Source: Alphaproteobacteria bacterium (GTDB lineage: Bacteria; Pseudomonadota; Alphaproteobacteria; Rs-D84). Taken from it: DNA of 13,399 nt. The position numbers and the translations under genes are program-made. The DNA is taken from positions 1 through 13,399 of the forward strand of contig JAVBPX010000010.1 of assembly GCA_031549365.1 (NCBI GenBank). Reading direction: 5' to 3'. Below are positions 4,024-13,399 of this stretch, piece after piece; position 1 is the stretch's first letter, and every line of letters begins with the position of its first letter. The notes beneath the pieces were generated by a model that was not told the origin of the DNA, searched no databases, and was given only the letters and a program-made list of their open reading frames with translations.

Positions 4024-4090
4024 TTATGAAATAGAATCTTCAAATCTCTGATTTGTTAGATTCGTTGTGGAATTCGCCCAATTTTTAGGT

Positions 4091-4115
4091 TCGCGGTGTA
4101 TACAAACATAAATAA
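4091..4115 (+). repeat. TGTAT-N6-ATACA palindromic element, degenerate copy B
   Basis: tcgcgg-tgtat-acaaac-ataaa-taa compared with ccgcgg-tgtat-atagac-ataca-taa at 7932. Confidence 0.65.
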
Positions 4116-4165
4116 CATCCAATTATCAAACTTATAAAAATAAATTATTCCAATATTTTTTATTT

Positions 4166-6236: not shown

Positions 6237-7568
6237 TTAAAATTCGGAATCATCCATATCGTCTGCCAAAAAAGCCCTTAAATCATTCCCCGACAAACCT
6301 GGCCTTGCGGCGGCTTCCCCAGCAGATTGAATTGAAATCAATCTTGGACTAATAAAAGCAACTAATTCAGCATATGGCGAAATCGTAGTCGTCGCATCAG
6401 CTACAAAAGCATGCGTTGGAATACCAATCACAACATAATTATCGCCCAACGTTGTTGGCACATTAAAACTAGACAATTCGCCCTTTCCGGTACGCAACAC
6501 AATTTTTGCATCTATTTTTTTCATTGATCCATCGGCATACGGACCATATTTTCCGGTTGCTCCAATTGTTAAGTCCGTCTCCAACCTTTCTTCTCTTGAA
6601 CATTGCCCAATGTCAAAACGAGATTGCCAAGAATTTGGGATAACAAACGTTCCTTGCGAAATCAAAACAACATTTGCTTGTTGCGACATAAATTCAGATA
6701 ATGTTTTTGTATTAATTTCCGGACTTACCACCAACAAACGTCCAACCACACCTGGAACCGACATTTTGATATTTTTATCACCAAACGCAGGAATTATATT
6801 CATCCAATTAATTGGATTTTCTGCACGTGGATACAAACGATAAACATCCACATCCCATGCAATTAAATACTTTTTCGATCCAACATCTGCTATCATCCTG
6901 GACATATCGCGCTCTGTTCTATAATTACCTTCGAACAATACAGTCATATCCTCCCAATTAACAATTAAATTGCGCATATTTTCGCCATGCATCGCATCCA
7001 ATAATGCCATCACAATGTATTGGTCTTTTGGCATTTTCATCAACCACTTTGTGTGTGAAAACAAATGAATTTCCTTTGACTCAGCATCATACGAATAATA
7101 CATTTTTCCCAAACGCGTCATTAAATCCACAGCATCTGCTAATGTTCCCGATGACACAGCCCCAGAAATATTCTCAGACACAGGATCATCGGCAATAACT
7201 TTAATTTTTGTCCCTTCCAATAAACGCTCAATGGCTGTTTTTAAATTCATGCTAACAAATTCATAATCATTAACCTGAAATTTTGGTAACTCATCTCCCT
7301 TATCGACCCGATGCATAGCAATCGGTTGTTCTGGAACAACGGACACAATCTGCTGATTGTTCCAATCCACGGTACAACGCTTTGGTAAATCAATTGAAAA
7401 GTTTTTCGCCGTATCTGTGGTTAACGCAGCTTTCTTTTGAAAAATTGGAACACTGTGTTCATTGATAACAAAATTTTCCACATAAGTTGTGTTAATCATC
7501 GGAACTTCATCTTTCTGACAACCCGCCAAAGACATAACAGCAATCACACCAACAATAAACTTTTTCAT
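6237..7568 (-). CDS. Outer-membrane lipoprotein secretin, type IVb pilus PilN/BfpB-like, compact (443 aa)
   Basis: Start re-assigned to the ATG at 7568 (GAGGAAGGA RBS), which gives the signal peptide MKKFIVGVIAVMSLAG|C (lipobox). Has an N-domain-like GTLADAVDLMTRLGKMYYSYD and secretin-like landmarks LIAWDVDVYRL..PINW, SQQANVVLIS..FDIG, GDNYVVIG and ELVAFISPRLI. Confidence 0.68.
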   Translation of the reverse strand: MKKFIVGVIAVMSLAGCQKDEVPMINTTYVENFVINEHSVPIFQKKAALTTDTAKNFSIDLPKRCTVDWNNQQIVSVVPEQPIAMHRVDKGDELPKFQVNDYEFVSMNLKTAIERLLEGTKIKVIADDPVSENISGAVSSGTLADAVDLMTRLGKMYYSYDAESKEIHLFSHTKWLMKMPKDQYIVMALLDAMHGENMRNLIVNWEDMTVLFEGNYRTERDMSRMIADVGSKKYLIAWDVDVYRLYPRAENPINWMNIIPAFGDKNIKMSVPGVVGRLLVVSPEINTKTLSEFMSQQANVVLISQGTFVIPNSWQSRFDIGQCSREERLETDLTIGATGKYGPYADGSMKKIDAKIVLRTGKGELSSFNVPTTLGDNYVVIGIPTHAFVADATTTISPYAELVAFISPRLISIQSAGEAAARPGLSGNDLRAFLADDMDDSEF

Positions 7569-7879: not shown

Positions 7880-8011
7880 CGAAATAACGCCAAAATTATG
7901 TAGCTACAACGAATTTATCCCATTTTCAAGCCCGCGGTGTATATAGACATACATAAGGGTTTGAAAATGGGATAAACTTGTTGGTAAATGCGTGATTTTC
8001 GCGTTATTTCG
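7880..8011 (+). repeat. 132-bp long palindromic element (RPE/MITE-like), intact copy D, overlapping the efp 3' end
   Basis: Terminal cgaaataacgc/gcgttatttcg (11-bp perfect pair), inner tttatcccattttcaa/ttgaaaatgggataaa (16-bp perfect pair) and apical tgtat-atagac-ataca. Confidence 0.9.
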
Positions 8012-8567
8012 CTCGTTCGACGTATTCCAACGTTTCGGTATTTACAACTACTTTCTCATCTTGCTCAACAAAAGTTGGAACCATGATTCTGACTCCATTG
8101 TCCAAAATCGCAGGCTTGTTGGATGATGCGGCTGTTTGTCCTTTGACTACCGGTTCTGTTTCAACCACAGTTGCAATAACAGTTTTCGGCAAAGTAACAG
8201 AAACAGGCTTTCCTTCGATAAAGCTGACCTGCACAGTCATACCATCTGCCAAAAATTTCATTTGGTCGCCCAAGCTGTCATTTGCCAATGTAAATTGTTC
8301 ATATGATGATAAATTCATGAAATAACAATCCGTACCATCTGTGTATAAAAATTGGCAATCTAAATCCTCGACCAACAATTTTTCAACAGTATCTTCTGTT
8401 CTCCAACGTTCATTTGCTTTGGAACCAGAATCGACATCTTTCATTTCAACCTGAACAAAAGCTCCACCCTTCCCTGGTTTAACTTTATAAACACTGGTTA
8501 CCGTATAACGACGTTTGTTGTGTTCAATAACCCAACCCGCGCGGATTGAATTTGCACTTTGTTTCAT
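8004..8567 (-). CDS. efp: Translation elongation factor P
   Basis: KPGKGGAFVQVEMK loop, VKGQTAASSNKPAILDNG and VNTETLEYVERA; 187 aa. AAAGGA RBS. Confidence 0.98.
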   Translation of the reverse strand: MKQSANSIRAGWVIEHNKRRYTVTSVYKVKPGKGGAFVQVEMKDVDSGSKANERWRTEDTVEKLLVEDLDCQFLYTDGTDCYFMNLSSYEQFTLANDSLGDQMKFLADGMTVQVSFIEGKPVSVTLPKTVIATVVETEPVVKGQTAASSNKPAILDNGVRIMVPTFVEQDEKVVVNTETLEYVERAK

Positions 8568-8812: not shown

Positions 8813-10111
8813 TTACTTAACTAGTTTAAGGCCACTATACTTACTTTCCACAGCCCCTCTCATTTCCTCTAATATCCCAATAACCATGGAAACCGATGTT
8901 GCGCTTTTTAAACGAGTCTCGGTATCCGTAATCGCGGCAGTTCCTGGGTTTTCGGCATTAACAGCATCAACCATCATTTGCGACAAATTACTTAATGCCA
9001 AACTCTGCATTACTGCTTCTTTGGTTTTCAAATTCCAAAAATATTGACTTCCTTCATACGGTCTGATTTCATCGGACACAACAATTCTCGAAGCAATTGA
9101 CCCTGTATATCCAACCATTACTGACCCGGCTCGAACTTGACCATTATTAATCGACAAATGCTGATTAACACCCAGCTCGGATTTAACCCCTCCAACCGCA
9201 TTTATAGTAAATAAATTCAACGTATTTGTTCTCAACACACCCGTATTTACTTGTTTAAAATAAGCATCCTTTTGCAAAACCAGCCCTCGTGATAAAACAA
9301 TATTTTGATTTTCCAACCCTAAATTTCCACGAACATACGCATCATTTTTGATTGATAATCCTTTTGTAATTGTCATAAACCTACTGAATTCAGCAACATT
9401 TGCATTTAAATTTTTTGCCGTTACTTGTTCAGTAAAATTCGCAACTTCTGGCTCTAATTTTCCCAAATCCATAATATCATGCTGGTTCATATCCATATCT
9501 GTATCCATCGTATTTTCACTCCGGTTCACAGACGCTATGCGCAACAATGAATCTGTTTTTTGTGATTTTAACTGAGTATTCATCAACACGGCATTTTCTG
9601 AAATATTAACATTCCATAAATGCGAAGATTGTTGCCATGTTCCGTAACTTCCATATAATTGTTTTTGCTCGGCATATCCTCCGCGCTCACCCACAGCCAA
9701 TGAAATCTGCCGCGTACGTAACGGTGAAAAGTTTGGATTATTCGCAACAACCAATCCCTGAACAAATGATCGGCCCTTGGCATCAGTTGTTTTAATTAAA
9801 CGCAAACTGTACTGAATCCCATATTTATTATTTTCATTATTAATTTGCTTGGTCAAACCATAGTTATGTAAATCTGCTAATTTAACCTGATAAACAGCCC
9901 CTCCTGGTGTCCCTATTAACTGCGGTTCTTTATCTTCAATATATTGATCCAAAGCCGCCTGAATCATCTGCATTTCACGAACAATTGCAACATCTTGCGC
10001 ACGATGATTCCGCTCGACATTTTGTCGATATAAAATTGGAAATATTGTGCCAATAATTGCAATCATTAATAACAATTCCAATAACATGGCTCCGCGATAA
10101 TTTTTCATCAT
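8813..10111 (-). CDS. PilV/Shufflon_N-like type IVb minor pilin/adhesin, paralogue 3
   Basis: Class III signal peptide MMKNYRG|AMLLE plus hydrophobic helix. GGYAEQKQLYGSYGTW and LLR..NTMDTDMDMNQHDI resemble the PilV constant-region motifs. ATGA overlap with the upstream gene. Confidence 0.78.
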   Translation of the reverse strand: MMKNYRGAMLLELLLMIAIIGTIFPILYRQNVERNHRAQDVAIVREMQMIQAALDQYIEDKEPQLIGTPGGAVYQVKLADLHNYGLTKQINNENNKYGIQYSLRLIKTTDAKGRSFVQGLVVANNPNFSPLRTRQISLAVGERGGYAEQKQLYGSYGTWQQSSHLWNVNISENAVLMNTQLKSQKTDSLLRIASVNRSENTMDTDMDMNQHDIMDLGKLEPEVANFTEQVTAKNLNANVAEFSRFMTITKGLSIKNDAYVRGNLGLENQNIVLSRGLVLQKDAYFKQVNTGVLRTNTLNLFTINAVGGVKSELGVNQHLSINNGQVRAGSVMVGYTGSIASRIVVSDEIRPYEGSQYFWNLKTKEAVMQSLALSNLSQMMVDAVNAENPGTAAITDTETRLKSATSVSMVIGILEEMRGAVESKYSGLKLVK

Positions 10112-11547
10112 CCTTCGCCTCCTTCTTCACCCTCTTCCTCACCTTCTTCTAAATCAATACCACCCTTTGTCTTTAATTTATACCATTCTTTTTCCAAAAT
10201 TAATGGTGTCCCATTTCGACCCAATTGAATTAAAATATAATTATCAACAGTATAACTAAAACTTGTTAATCCTAATAATGTCAGCTTCGCAAATGACGGA
10301 GGCGTCGGCCCCTTATAATTATTTTGCGCAGGGTTCAGAGAATAACTCCAATACCCAAATTTAATCGGAGTATATTCACCCTCTCGTAATATTTCGTTTG
10401 AAATAGCCAATCCAAAATCCCCGGCAAATGTTAATGTTGTTGTTTTAACATACGGCACACTCATTGTGCGCGCAACAATCTTATTAAAAAATGACAAAGT
10501 ACGGGTACTATCAGACTTTGCTTCCAACAATTCCCCAACCCACAATTCTTTGGACACTGCCGTCCTGTTCGCAACGATTTTTCCTTGTTGGTGATAATTT
10601 TGATTTTCCAAATCACCAACTTCTTGATTGCTTAACCCGCCAAAAAACTTTGGAACCTGAATTTCCTTGGCTCCCATAATTTCTTCTGTAACCCGCATGC
10701 TTTGCATTGATGTTTTTTGATCTGATGACTGATCATTAATCGGAATAATCTTGGCCCCCTGAAAGAAAAACCCTTCATTCGCCTTTAATTCTTCGGCATT
10801 TATAAAATAACTACTGATATTTGTCCCAACATTTAAAATATTTCCAAATAAATCGCGCACATTATTTAAATCATGTTTTTTTAAACCTTCTCCCAAATAT
10901 AACGTTGTCTCCATTGAATTTAATGCAGTACGTGATCCCAACTTCAAACGATGTAAATATTGATTGTTTTGAACCAATTTGTTTGTAGCGTCAATTCTGT
11001 ACGCAACAACATTGTCTTCGCCCTTCCAATCCGTAATAGACCAAGATCCCAAAATACTATAAATATTTCCATCCGCCTCGACCGCCCCTCCGGCCATCCC
11101 CAACACAGACGCAATATGATGCGCACGAAACATATTAATACTCTTGTCCATGTCAACAATCATATACGCATTAACAACCATGTTTCCCCGACCCGTCGTG
11201 GATTTATTAATCAATACAGATTTTCCATCAATAAAATTTTTAAATCTCTGATTTTCGGGATCCGCTCCAAAAGGCTTTAACTCTTCATAAAAAGATTCGC
11301 TTGGAATAACTTTTTGAACGGTGGCTGGCCAAGAAACCTGTTTAACCCTAATATAATTTAAAATTGGTTCTTCATATCCTTGAATATACCTGGCAATTCC
11401 AATATCCGACAAATCGCGGGTTGTTTCAAATATTTTTTGATAAGCAAAAGGCGCAATCATCCCAACAATAGCCATAGCCAATATGACCTCAAACATACTG
11501 GCTCCTCGCTCTGTCTTTGAAAAATCTTTTTTTAATCTTTCCAACAT
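10108..11547 (-). CDS. PilV/Shufflon_N-like type IVb minor pilin/adhesin, paralogue 2
   Basis: ..KTERG|ASMFE plus hydrophobic helix; IASVLGMAGGAVEADGNIYSILGSW; YLHR..LNSMETTLYLG..HDLNNV; acidic C-terminal tail. Confidence 0.75.
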   Translation of the reverse strand: MLERLKKDFSKTERGASMFEVILAMAIVGMIAPFAYQKIFETTRDLSDIGIARYIQGYEEPILNYIRVKQVSWPATVQKVIPSESFYEELKPFGADPENQRFKNFIDGKSVLINKSTTGRGNMVVNAYMIVDMDKSINMFRAHHIASVLGMAGGAVEADGNIYSILGSWSITDWKGEDNVVAYRIDATNKLVQNNQYLHRLKLGSRTALNSMETTLYLGEGLKKHDLNNVRDLFGNILNVGTNISSYFINAEELKANEGFFFQGAKIIPINDQSSDQKTSMQSMRVTEEIMGAKEIQVPKFFGGLSNQEVGDLENQNYHQQGKIVANRTAVSKELWVGELLEAKSDSTRTLSFFNKIVARTMSVPYVKTTTLTFAGDFGLAISNEILREGEYTPIKFGYWSYSLNPAQNNYKGPTPPSFAKLTLLGLTSFSYTVDNYILIQLGRNGTPLILEKEWYKLKTKGGIDLEEGEEEGEEGGEG

Positions 11548-11559
11548 ACTACTCGCTTG

Positions 11560-13026
11560 TTATAAATACATCTTTTTGCATAATTCTTTTCCAATCTCGC
11601 CTTCATTGATTAAACAGTTCATAATGTCTAATCTTTTTTGAATACGAATGTAATAGGCATAAGTACAAACTAAATATTGCGATAAACTATTTTTATTATA
11701 AGTATATCCCAAATCATACATATAATTTTCACATGTTTGCGTCGCACCTGTCTGGTCATGCACACCTCTTGGGATCAAAATCTTTCCATTGTCAATGCTT
11801 GTTAAATAAACATCAGGCAGCCTGGATTCTGACGCCAACCTGATTGATAACACACTTAAACTTTCATCTGATCTTTCTGCCAAAGCCTGATAATTTTGAT
11901 CCTGAACTGTAATATGCCCTGCATATAATTTTTCTGTCTCGATTCCGTATAAAACCACACCATCTTCTGTCTCTGTTTCAACCGGACGCGGCACATGTAA
12001 ATACGATTTAATTTCCAAAGAATCGACATCATAAAATCTGAAATTTGTAAAACTAGCATTTTCACGAATATTCCAAACCGCCGGCCCGGAAAAAGATTGC
12101 GGCGAAACATCGGCCTGCTTATATTCATAAACCGAAACCAAATCCGCAGTTAAAACCCCTGGATCCCCATGCACAGAAATATCTTTCACAGACATAACAT
12201 TTGCCATTAAAGCCTGACGCGAAATATCCAGCGCATTTCCAGACAAATCTTGATTTTGAAAAAACACAGAATTAAAACTCATCCGCCCAATCGTATTGGT
12301 CCTACGTGATTCCTCGGTTCCATCAACTCGCAAAACTTTGGTTGACACATTATCAAAATTACCCGTCATCGCTTCAACCTTGGCAACGTTTTGAATATCA
12401 TGTCCCCCCATATATAATGTTGTCTGCATTGCGCTCTGACTGGATGACCCGGTCTTTCTGCGTGATAACAATTCACTAATTTCTGATTCACTTGGAACCT
12501 TCATGTAAATATGATCTTCTGCTAATTTTAAATTATATGTCGTTGGATCTTCTTCCCAAGCACCAGTCGCACCAACTAATAACCCAGTATCTTCATCCAA
12601 CGTTGCGCCATAAAATCCCAACCGTTGTGCAATTTCAATACGACGAAAACCAGATAACCTGTGCTTACTGGCATCAACATCAATCAGCACCAACGTTCCA
12701 CCAGGATTATTTGCAATAATAACCGAAATCGGATGTCCCAGAGGAGTAATAGGCTTAAACCCAATCGGCAAACCATATGGTTCCAACACTCGAACCAATA
12801 AATCTTTGTCCAAAATTGTGCGTCCTTCCGGCATAGAATCTTCTTCCGTCGCCAAAAACAACTTGGTCGATTGATAAACATTTTCGACCTGCCGTTGCAT
12901 CGCGACATTTTCCTGTAACGTACGACGATCGGCCAACTTCTGCACCATCATAGGCATAAAAGCAATCACAATCGTCAACATCAACAATGCTTCGAATAAA
13001 AAATCACCAGCAATGGTTTTTCTCAA
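11560..13026 (-). CDS. PilV/Shufflon_N-like type IVb minor pilin/adhesin, paralogue 1
   Basis: TTG start with GGGAG 7 nt upstream. MRKTIAG|DFLFE plus hydrophobic helix; LEPYGLPIGFKPITPLG; IAQRLGFYGA..LVGATGAW; LLSR..MQTTLYMGGHDIQNV; four C-terminal Cys. Confidence 0.75.
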   Translation of the reverse strand: MRKTIAGDFLFEALLMLTIVIAFMPMMVQKLADRRTLQENVAMQRQVENVYQSTKLFLATEEDSMPEGRTILDKDLLVRVLEPYGLPIGFKPITPLGHPISVIIANNPGGTLVLIDVDASKHRLSGFRRIEIAQRLGFYGATLDEDTGLLVGATGAWEEDPTTYNLKLAEDHIYMKVPSESEISELLSRRKTGSSSQSAMQTTLYMGGHDIQNVAKVEAMTGNFDNVSTKVLRVDGTEESRRTNTIGRMSFNSVFFQNQDLSGNALDISRQALMANVMSVKDISVHGDPGVLTADLVSVYEYKQADVSPQSFSGPAVWNIRENASFTNFRFYDVDSLEIKSYLHVPRPVETETEDGVVLYGIETEKLYAGHITVQDQNYQALAERSDESLSVLSIRLASESRLPDVYLTSIDNGKILIPRGVHDQTGATQTCENYMYDLGYTYNKNSLSQYLVCTYAYYIRIQKRLDIMNCLINEGEIGKELCKKMYL

Positions 13027-13055
13027 ATAAAAACTCCCTTTCCCTTAATGGGTAT

Positions 13056-13084
13056 AGTATAGAAAACCCCGCAAAAAAAGTCCA
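13056..13084 (-). promoter_or_regulatory. Putative sigma70 promoter of the pilV-like operon
   Basis: Minus strand TGGACT-N17-TATACT, 29 bp upstream of the TTG start. Confidence 0.5.
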
Positions 13085-13118: not shown

Positions 13119-13197
13119 GTCATCCCAAACTTATTTCGGGATCAAAAAACCATTGCAACGCAATGCAATTCGTCATTACGAGCGCATCGCACCAATC
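13119..13197 (+). repeat. Cluster of GTCAT-led REP-like modules
   Basis: gtcatcccaaacttatttcgggatc (hairpin), cattgc-aac-gcaatg and gtcattacgagcgcatcgcaccaatc. The same modules occur at 107-166 and 290-325. Confidence 0.7.
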
Positions 13198-13211: not shown

Positions 13212-13366
13212 TTGTCATCTCTCGGCAGCCATAACTCCGTGGCAATCTTTATCTCGGCGAAACAACGTGCAGACGGATCATTGCAATTAAAAACCATCTC
13301 GCCCCAACGGGGAGAGATAATAAAACATATGATCTTTGATCATCATGTTTTATAGAGAGGGGGAAA
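13212..13366 (+). repeat. Multi-hairpin dispersed repeat, copy 3
   Basis: Near-identical to copy 2 from caatctttatctcggcg to gagaggggg, with a more diverged 5' GTCAT module. Same orientation as copies 1 and 2. Confidence 0.95.
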
Positions 13367-13399
13367 TAAAAACAATAACCACAATTAAACCACCCCAAA

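Follow-up and report, generated by a model that had tools for sequence, protein, structure and literature searches.

According to PMC13533445, in each T4b (type IVb) pilus tip solved so far (CofB, TcpB) one minor pilin forms a homotrimer, while most other type IV filaments carry a syntenic PilIJK-type heterotrimer. In the sets of the type II secretion system (T2SS) and of type IV pili (T4P), the GspK-type pilin is described in PMC5207764 as large, restricted to the tip position and the sole member without a glutamate at position +5 (Glu5). Here, three tandem genes (A, B and C) related to pilV of IncI plasmids were analysed in an alphaproteobacterial assembly of the Rs-D84 lineage (GCA_031549365.1), on contig JAVBPX010000010.1, whose entire 13,399 bp are referred to below as the window and whose genes all lie on the minus strand. 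The reading favoured here, to which we give an even chance, is that A, B and C form one operon and encode three minor pilins of the PilV (Shufflon_N) family, none of them redundant; from their sequences and by analogy with known tips, these would act together on a T4b-like filament as a putative mixed module for priming or for the tip, rather than as interchangeable adhesins.

Gene A (11560-13026, 488 amino acids (aa)) begins with a TTG start codon preceded by GGGAG at 13034-13038, and genes B (10108-11547, 479 aa) and C (8813-10111, 432 aa) encode the other two PilV-like minor pilins. An earlier note on this DNA had reported a 12-bp gap between A and B followed by an ATGA overlap between B and C, and both were confirmed in the sequence. 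Each of the three proteins starts with a short basic leader, Gly-1 and Glu+5 and continues into a hydrophobic helix, in which one Pro is invariant. The prepilin cleavage site (marked by a slash) reads MRKTIAG/DFLFE in the sequence of A, with a polar Asp at +1, ...TERG/ASMFE in B, after a 15-residue leader and with Ala+1, and MMKNYRG/AMLLE in C, also with Ala+1. Further downstream, ten positions were invariant in the alignment of the three proteins (G137, G140, G155, W157, L187, R189, M200, T202, H209 and D210 in A numbering), and the G..G...G.W and L.R..M.T...M..HD motifs that the earlier note had named correspond to such invariant columns. The second motif (L.R...M.T...M..HD) covers residues 187-210 of A (12397-12468, minus strand), at positions that were also conserved across a 67-row family alignment; residues about 197-226 of B (10870-10959, minus strand), as YLHR...LNSMETTLYLG...HDL; and residues 189-213 of C (9473-9547, minus strand), where it falls within a low-confidence linker of the structure model. 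Pairwise BLASTP comparisons among A, B and C gave E-values of 6e-11, 1e-14 and 5e-11 with 23-24% identity, confined to the first ~245 residues.

The relationship of these pilin halves to PilV was recovered by several searches. In Pfam, Shufflon_N (PF04917; cut-off 27.5 bits) was matched above the cut-off by C (43.9 bits), below it by A (18.9 bits) and not at all by B, which had no Pfam match of any kind, and N_methyl, the Pfam counterpart of the prepilin N-terminal motif that the earlier note had named, matched none of the three. Using profiles of the orthologue groups, hhalign aligned all of them with the annotated plasmid PilV, at probabilities of 96.8 for A (E = 2.9e-10), 96.0 for B and 95.8 for C, over the N-terminal 213-231 columns of PilV. 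A tblastn search with C against plasmids found annotated pilV genes in three of the four matching plasmids, the best at 26.8% identity (E = 8e-6). No window protein matched the GspI, GspJ or GspK families in Pfam at E<=1, the N-terminus of C reached only a sub-threshold 19.9 bits with NCBIfam GspG (cut-off 88.85), and PDB sequence searches with C and with profiles of A, of B and of the family returned no significant pilin match. The claim of three tandem PilV-like minor-pilin genes was borne out by the Shufflon_N, BLASTP and hhalign results together. These comparisons show that A, B and C arose through old duplications of one PilV-like gene, that each paralogue retained a pilin half made up of the class III signal, the alpha-1 helix, the globular domain and the L.R..M.T..M..HD linker, and that each gained its own distinct C-terminal half.

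A genome scan with a three-sequence alignment yielded five related loci (L001-L005), all titled 'MAG: Rickettsiales bacterium' (MAG, metagenome-assembled genome); the contigs are JAIRUP010000010, JAISSM010000060, JAITQO010000006, JAITLD010000001 and JAISGC010000079. All five hold a single orthologue of each gene of the trio, in the order A, B, C on one strand, with no fourth copy, A being truncated by the contig end in L002; copy number is thus not freely varying in this small sample. Over their full length, the A orthologues were 32-37% identical to the window copy, those of B 25-33% and those of C 28-33%, and the genomes carrying these loci had a GC content of 49-57%, against 38% in the window. 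The ATGA overlap between B and C was also present in L001, L002 and L003. Among the orthologues, Shufflon_N was matched above the cut-off by A of L003 (31.4 bits) and below it by C of L001 (22.7 bits).

In a careful tree built from 53 rows of pilin-half sequence, with which a quick tree agreed, the orthologues formed three clades with supports of 100/99 for A, 99/96 for B and 100/97 for C. The branching order was identical in the three clades (window copy, then L001, then L002-L005), which fits co-inheritance of A, B and C. The three orthologue groups that the heterotrimer model of the earlier note called for were therefore recovered in order, in five of five loci and as separate clades. Together, the clades and the fixed order in the five loci point to an old triplication and to three genes that travelled together; on this sequence evidence, A, B and C have been inherited together, with their order fixed, since the duplication.

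Beyond these loci, an HMMER search with B retrieved 149 cluster representatives at E<=1e-3, of which 34 reached <=1e-10 and 10 reached <=1e-30. The prepilin pattern was present in nearly all relatives (134 of the 151 proteins collected), and Shufflon_N was recognised in 2 of the 48 relatives scanned with Pfam. Named relatives were 'hypothetical protein' entries from Rickettsiales or Alphaproteobacteria MAGs. The relatives fell into two size classes (~400-500 aa and ~900-1200 aa), the longer of which has only the N-terminal domain in common with the trio. The 58 long relatives (800-1218 aa) share the PilV-like N-terminal ~240 residues alone, with the pattern GS[ML]M[IV]EA...TELQDIN, and one of them (P0061) scored 57.6 bits on Shufflon_N. 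Fusions of the trio were considered for these proteins (n = 58, >=800 aa) and rejected, as no C-terminal part of A, B or C was found in them.

The C-terminal halves had been described as unrelated, and profile hidden Markov models (HMMs) built from them agreed: each matched its own group only (20, 48 and 10 matches), with no cross match at E<=1e-3. Mean pairwise identities among orthologues, given for the pilin half and the C-terminal half, were 44.6 and 43.7% for A, 36.9 and 41.7% for B, and 44.5 and 40.5% for C. This similar conservation of the two halves indicates that the C-terminal halves are not hypervariable, unlike shufflon tips. The C-terminus of A holds four invariant cysteines (C432, C454, C471 and C483) within its last ~55 residues, present in 12 of the 13 A-type proteins from the profile search, and its C-terminal half gave an uninformative best score of 0.78 in the ESM Atlas. 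B ends in an acidic tail, EEGEEEGEEGGEG, which is missing from all B orthologues; the ribosome-binding site of C, GAAGGAGG, sits within the codons of this tail (10108-10150).

The residue at +5 separated A from its paralogues. It was acidic in six of six B proteins and Glu in six of six C proteins, and among the 17 readable members of the A family it was Gln in 14 and Glu in 3, the Gln occurring in three of the five locus orthologues and in 11 of 12 further A-type proteins. Glu+5, which had been read in all three proteins, thus stood for the window and is not conserved in the A family. The +1 residue of A-type proteins was polar (Asp, Arg or Asn).

An AlphaFold2 model of C, based on the 67-row alignment, reached a pLDDT (predicted local distance difference test) of 80 and a pTM (predicted TM score) of 0.51. 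It comprises a long alpha-1 helix and a pilin domain in residues 1-180 (block pLDDT >=88, the first ten residues excepted), then a poorly ordered linker holding the conserved motif in residues 181-222 (pLDDT 60-77, and 60-74 for residues 181-220), a beta-rich stalk in residues 223-367 and C-terminal helices in residues 376-431. A fold search of this model against the PDB gave no match at E<=1e-3. The non-significant top matches included PilM (3eoi), the T4b pilus of enterotoxigenic Escherichia coli (ETEC; 9iuf), TcpB (7w63), the toxin-coregulated pilus (TCP; 8uhf) and CofA (3s0t); the weak matches also took in proteins with a beta-helix, MinC among them. A viral fold search with the same model gave no match at E<=1e-3 either. 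A match of the family profile to the phage tail fibre 9cuy (E = 1.4e-4) was rejected, since it consisted of four weak, high-bias repeat stretches with individual E-values of at least 0.5, and is taken as a beta-repeat likeness and not as homology.

Under the favoured reading, a prepilin peptidase encoded elsewhere would cleave A, B and C, which would then act jointly on a single filament of type IV (T4b-like). The likeliest product is a mixed priming or tip module joined via their common pilin halves, with A as the apex subunit (a family mostly without Glu5, polar at +1 and ending in a C-terminal knob with four cysteines) and the three distinct C-terminal parts facing outward for attachment. 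The fixed number and order of the genes, the congruent clades, the conserved coupling and the conserved, group-specific C-terminal halves argue that each protein is needed and that the three act together. As the paralogues share the pilin half and the linker motif, a pseudo-symmetric contact would be likelier there than in the C-terminal halves, and the position of the most conserved motif in a poorly ordered segment of the model recalls interface segments. The A family, with its tendency towards loss of Glu5, is in turn reminiscent of the GspK-type pilins.

A stricter form of this reading, an obligate 1:1:1 heterotrimer of A, B and C at the tip of a type IVb-like pilus, is predicted only tentatively from the sequences and by analogy, and we consider it possible but doubtful. 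In this form, a homotrimeric tip of the CofB, TcpB or PilV type would have turned into a heterotrimer through duplication and specialisation, A would stand at the apex with no need of Glu5, and the three heads would be shown together. The result would be a convergence on the GspIJK/PilIJK design from another starting protein, in uncultured host-associated Alphaproteobacteria.

Several observations weigh against a mixed tip, strict or not. The homotrimeric T4b tips described in PMC13533445 are the first of them. Moreover, genes for a pilus ATPase, a platform protein, a prepilin peptidase, a major pilin and a Pfam secretin are all absent from the window, and none of the 63 open reading frames (ORFs) lying up to 10 kb from the trio in the five related loci matched a family of the T4P machinery; as machinery accompanies the trio in none of the loci, the assembly of a pilus by these organisms is an assumption. 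The apex argument leans on relatives, because the A protein of the window itself keeps Glu+5; the 14 Gln rows include several close relatives of one another, so that the +5 count is not made of independent observations, and the Gln of A differs from the hydrophobic residue reported for GspK. TcpB (7w63) was only the fifth fold match of C and was not significant (E = 0.43, probability 0.16). The conservation sample is also limited to five loci of one lineage.

A first alternative is that A, B and C are a fixed repertoire of adhesins, each forming its own homotrimeric tip on separate pili, which would give each cell three receptor specificities at once and make the locus a hard-wired stand-in for a shufflon. 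We regard this as rather unlikely, a little more so than the obligate heterotrimer. It draws on the unrelated C-terminal halves, on the Glu5 kept in all three window proteins, on the single-pilin homotrimers found in the T4b tips solved so far (PMC13533445), and on the finding, as given in PMC9045228, that the C-termini of IncI PilV set recipient specificity. For such a repertoire, gain, loss and shuffling of genes would be expected, but number and order are fixed in five of five loci; variability is no higher in the C-terminal than in the pilin halves, the A family is mostly without Glu5, and the translational coupling of B and C is kept in three further loci. As to a true shufflon, none of the 11 ORFs of at least 150 aa in the window is a recombinase (rci), no sfx-like repeat set was found in it, and it holds no silent C-terminal cassettes, for which there is no room (the largest intergenic gaps measure ~430 bp, and C is separated from efp by 245 bp). 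The description of the locus as shufflon-free therefore stands as far as the window extends.

Less likely again is that the trio encodes pseudopilins of a secretion-type or periplasmic filament, such as a T2SS-like endopilus, or envelope proteins that retain just the class III signal, with no external adhesive pilus. The absence of pilus machinery or a major pilin near the trio in six of six loci would suit this view, as would the description in PMC10847448 of T4P and T2SS components scattered in Rickettsiales. Against it, the nearest recognisable relatives are the PilV adhesins of conjugative pili and not the GspH-K families, and the big C-terminal parts, including a beta-rich stalk, suit display on the outside better than a periplasmic piston. 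A further point in its favour is a probable secretin encoded in the window, which keeps 60-66% identity across the lineage, in contrast to the fast-diverging trio.

This candidate is a lipoprotein (MKKF...LAGC; 6237-7568, or to 7610, minus strand; 443 aa from a probable ATG at 7568), encoded 1.2 kb downstream of the trio and 12 bp ahead of lolC-lolD. It had no Pfam match and no PDB sequence match, and hhalign related it to plasmid PilN at 9% probability. Its nearest named clusters in the ESM Atlas were those of Secretin (PF00263; score 0.93). The structure model was poor (pLDDT 46.8), and a fold search with it gave 20 matches at E<=1e-3, with TM scores of 0.10-0.21; all of the matches listed were secretins, with PilQ (6w6m) and BfpB (9u5s), a T4b lipoprotein secretin, at the top. 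On the strength of these modelled likenesses, the protein is probably a very divergent secretin. It had 1219 homologues, some of them on near-complete contigs of 0.85-0.92 Mb, and the best 120 were 60-66% identical to it; the best relatives of the trio were 30-39% identical, so that either the trio evolves much faster than the lipoprotein or closer relatives of the trio were missed. In the other five loci the lipoprotein gene does not adjoin the trio, which makes a functional link between the two a mere possibility.

Finally, the idea that the likeness is a matter of chance or annotation and that the three ORFs are unrelated non-pilin genes, which could appeal to C alone exceeding the Pfam cut-off, is refuted by the pairwise E-values (1e-14 to 6e-11), the 149 relatives of B at E<=1e-3, the full-length orthologues of each gene in five other genomes and the PilV profile matches at 96-97% probability, and retains practically no credit.

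In the ORF listing of the loci, a prepilin-like N-terminus at the ORF start was seen in A, B and C alone. The flanks varied from locus to locus (lepA and infB; a rluD-like gene; tyrS), and these variable flanks without machinery suggest that the trio is a self-contained unit among housekeeping genes. Two conserved genes stood beside the trio in three of the five loci, in differing arrangements (L003:4141-7423, L004:2034-5552 and L005:6040-9720), encoding a signal-peptide protein of ~390-410 aa and a cysteine-rich protein of ~660-750 aa. Neither had a Pfam match in these loci, and both genes may be functionally linked to the trio. Two small conserved ORFs were located after gene C and before the rluD-like gene in two loci (L002:3043-3953 and L004:10223-11278) and were absent from the window; one encodes a membrane protein with a zinc ribbon (~156 aa), the other a protein resembling a lipoprotein (146-191 aa).

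Upstream of the trio, a terminator-like hairpin with a T run (13151-13165, minus strand), identified by consensus pattern match only, probably ends the preceding transcription unit. A sigma-70-like promoter candidate ahead of gene A (TGGACT-17-TATACT; 13056-13084, minus strand; 9 of 12 consensus matches) is weak, as shuffled sequence holds about equally many such sites. Downstream, efp (8004-8567, minus strand) lies between the trio and the lipoprotein gene, after which come, also on the minus strand, lolC, lolD, a gene for a penicillin-binding protein 5 (PBP5)-type carboxypeptidase, holB, tatD and smpB. GC content (0.36-0.41) and skew were uniform along the window, in which base composition gave no sign of a recent transfer of the trio, and Rfam and tRNA scans of the window gave no match.

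The window also contains two kinds of repeated DNA. A dispersed repeat of ~100 nt, with 97% column identity and two internal hairpins, is present at 1-112, 182-293 and 13263-13374, that is, at both contig ends, which is probably why the assembly broke there. A near-perfect palindromic intergenic element of 132 nt (7880-8011) folds at -53.8 kcal/mol (z = -9.6); related copies are found near 4070-4123 and 358-419, it is repeated in other intergenic gaps, and it did not match Rfam.

The statement of the earlier note that no described system has such a layout held for pilins of the PilV or T4b type and not beyond them, as GspIJK, PilIJK, KilLMN/TadEFG and PilABC are known (PMC13533445, PMC12075869). 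No description of tandem PilV-type trios was found in the full-text literature, as judged by titles and abstract openings, with subscription-only papers outside its coverage. The novelty lies in a trio of PilV-type pilins, since tip complexes encoded by three genes have precedents in T2SS, type IVa pili and Tad. If the favoured reading is true, such a trio would be a natural intermediate between homotrimeric T4b tips and three-pilin heterotrimers, and a test case for a symmetric tip becoming asymmetric. The A, B and C types are, in addition, three protein families from uncultured Alphaproteobacteria that Pfam largely misses. These families may mediate host attachment: type IV pili are thought to serve this role in some Rickettsiales (PMC10847448), which fits an adhesive trio by analogy rather than by evidence from this lineage. 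Demonstration of binding and of a pilus machine would be needed for the practical value to be more than modest.

Among known systems, the closest in sequence is PilV of the IncI/R64-type thin (type IVb) pili, whose N-terminal ~240 residues are homologous and carry the same motifs. The plasmid PilV used for comparison (490 aa) and the trio (432-488 aa) also share the short leader, Gly-1 and Glu+5. The plasmid compared has a classical pilL-pilV operon with one pilV, whereas the trio consists of three diverged full-length genes in a chromosomal housekeeping setting, not at the end of such an operon, and, unlike shufflon-type pilV, is without rci, sfx or cassettes within the window; shufflon-free single pilV genes also occur on plasmids. 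The C-terminal halves of the trio are unrelated to that of plasmid PilV, the hhalign matches ending at about residue 230-258. CofB (from the CFA/III colonization factor of ETEC) and TcpB (TCP of Vibrio cholerae) resemble the trio in being large minor pilins with a pilin domain and beta-rich C-terminal parts. A homotrimer of either protein primes assembly, and in PMC13533445 each is described as the product of one gene that forms a homotrimer, in contrast to three paralogues with different C-terminal halves.

In gene arrangement, the trio is closer to the GspI-J-K, PilI-J-K and PilV-W-X heterotrimers, which are described as three syntenic, co-transcribed genes in conserved order (PMC5207764, PMC13533445). 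In sets of the GspIJK/PilIJK kind, one large member tends to lack Glu5 according to the same sources; most of the A family does so too, although the A protein of the window keeps it. There is no sequence match between the trio and these sets, and all three proteins of the trio are large and are paralogues of one another. The member without Glu5 is encoded by the first gene in the trio and by the last in GspIJK-type sets, and carries Gln instead of a hydrophobic residue. The KilL-M-N proteins of the Myxococcus Kil/Tad systems (TadE/F/G-like) and PilA-B-C of Streptococcus sanguinis are likewise three-gene sets with extra modules, for which heterotrimeric tips are predicted or shown (PMC12075869, in which the PilABC heterotrimeric tip is cited from other work). 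They belong to other pilin classes (Tad or type IVc, and type IVa), and no TadE Pfam match was found in the window. Paralogous Kil clusters are reported in PMC12075869 to be spread around the genome away from their machinery, just as the trio stands apart.

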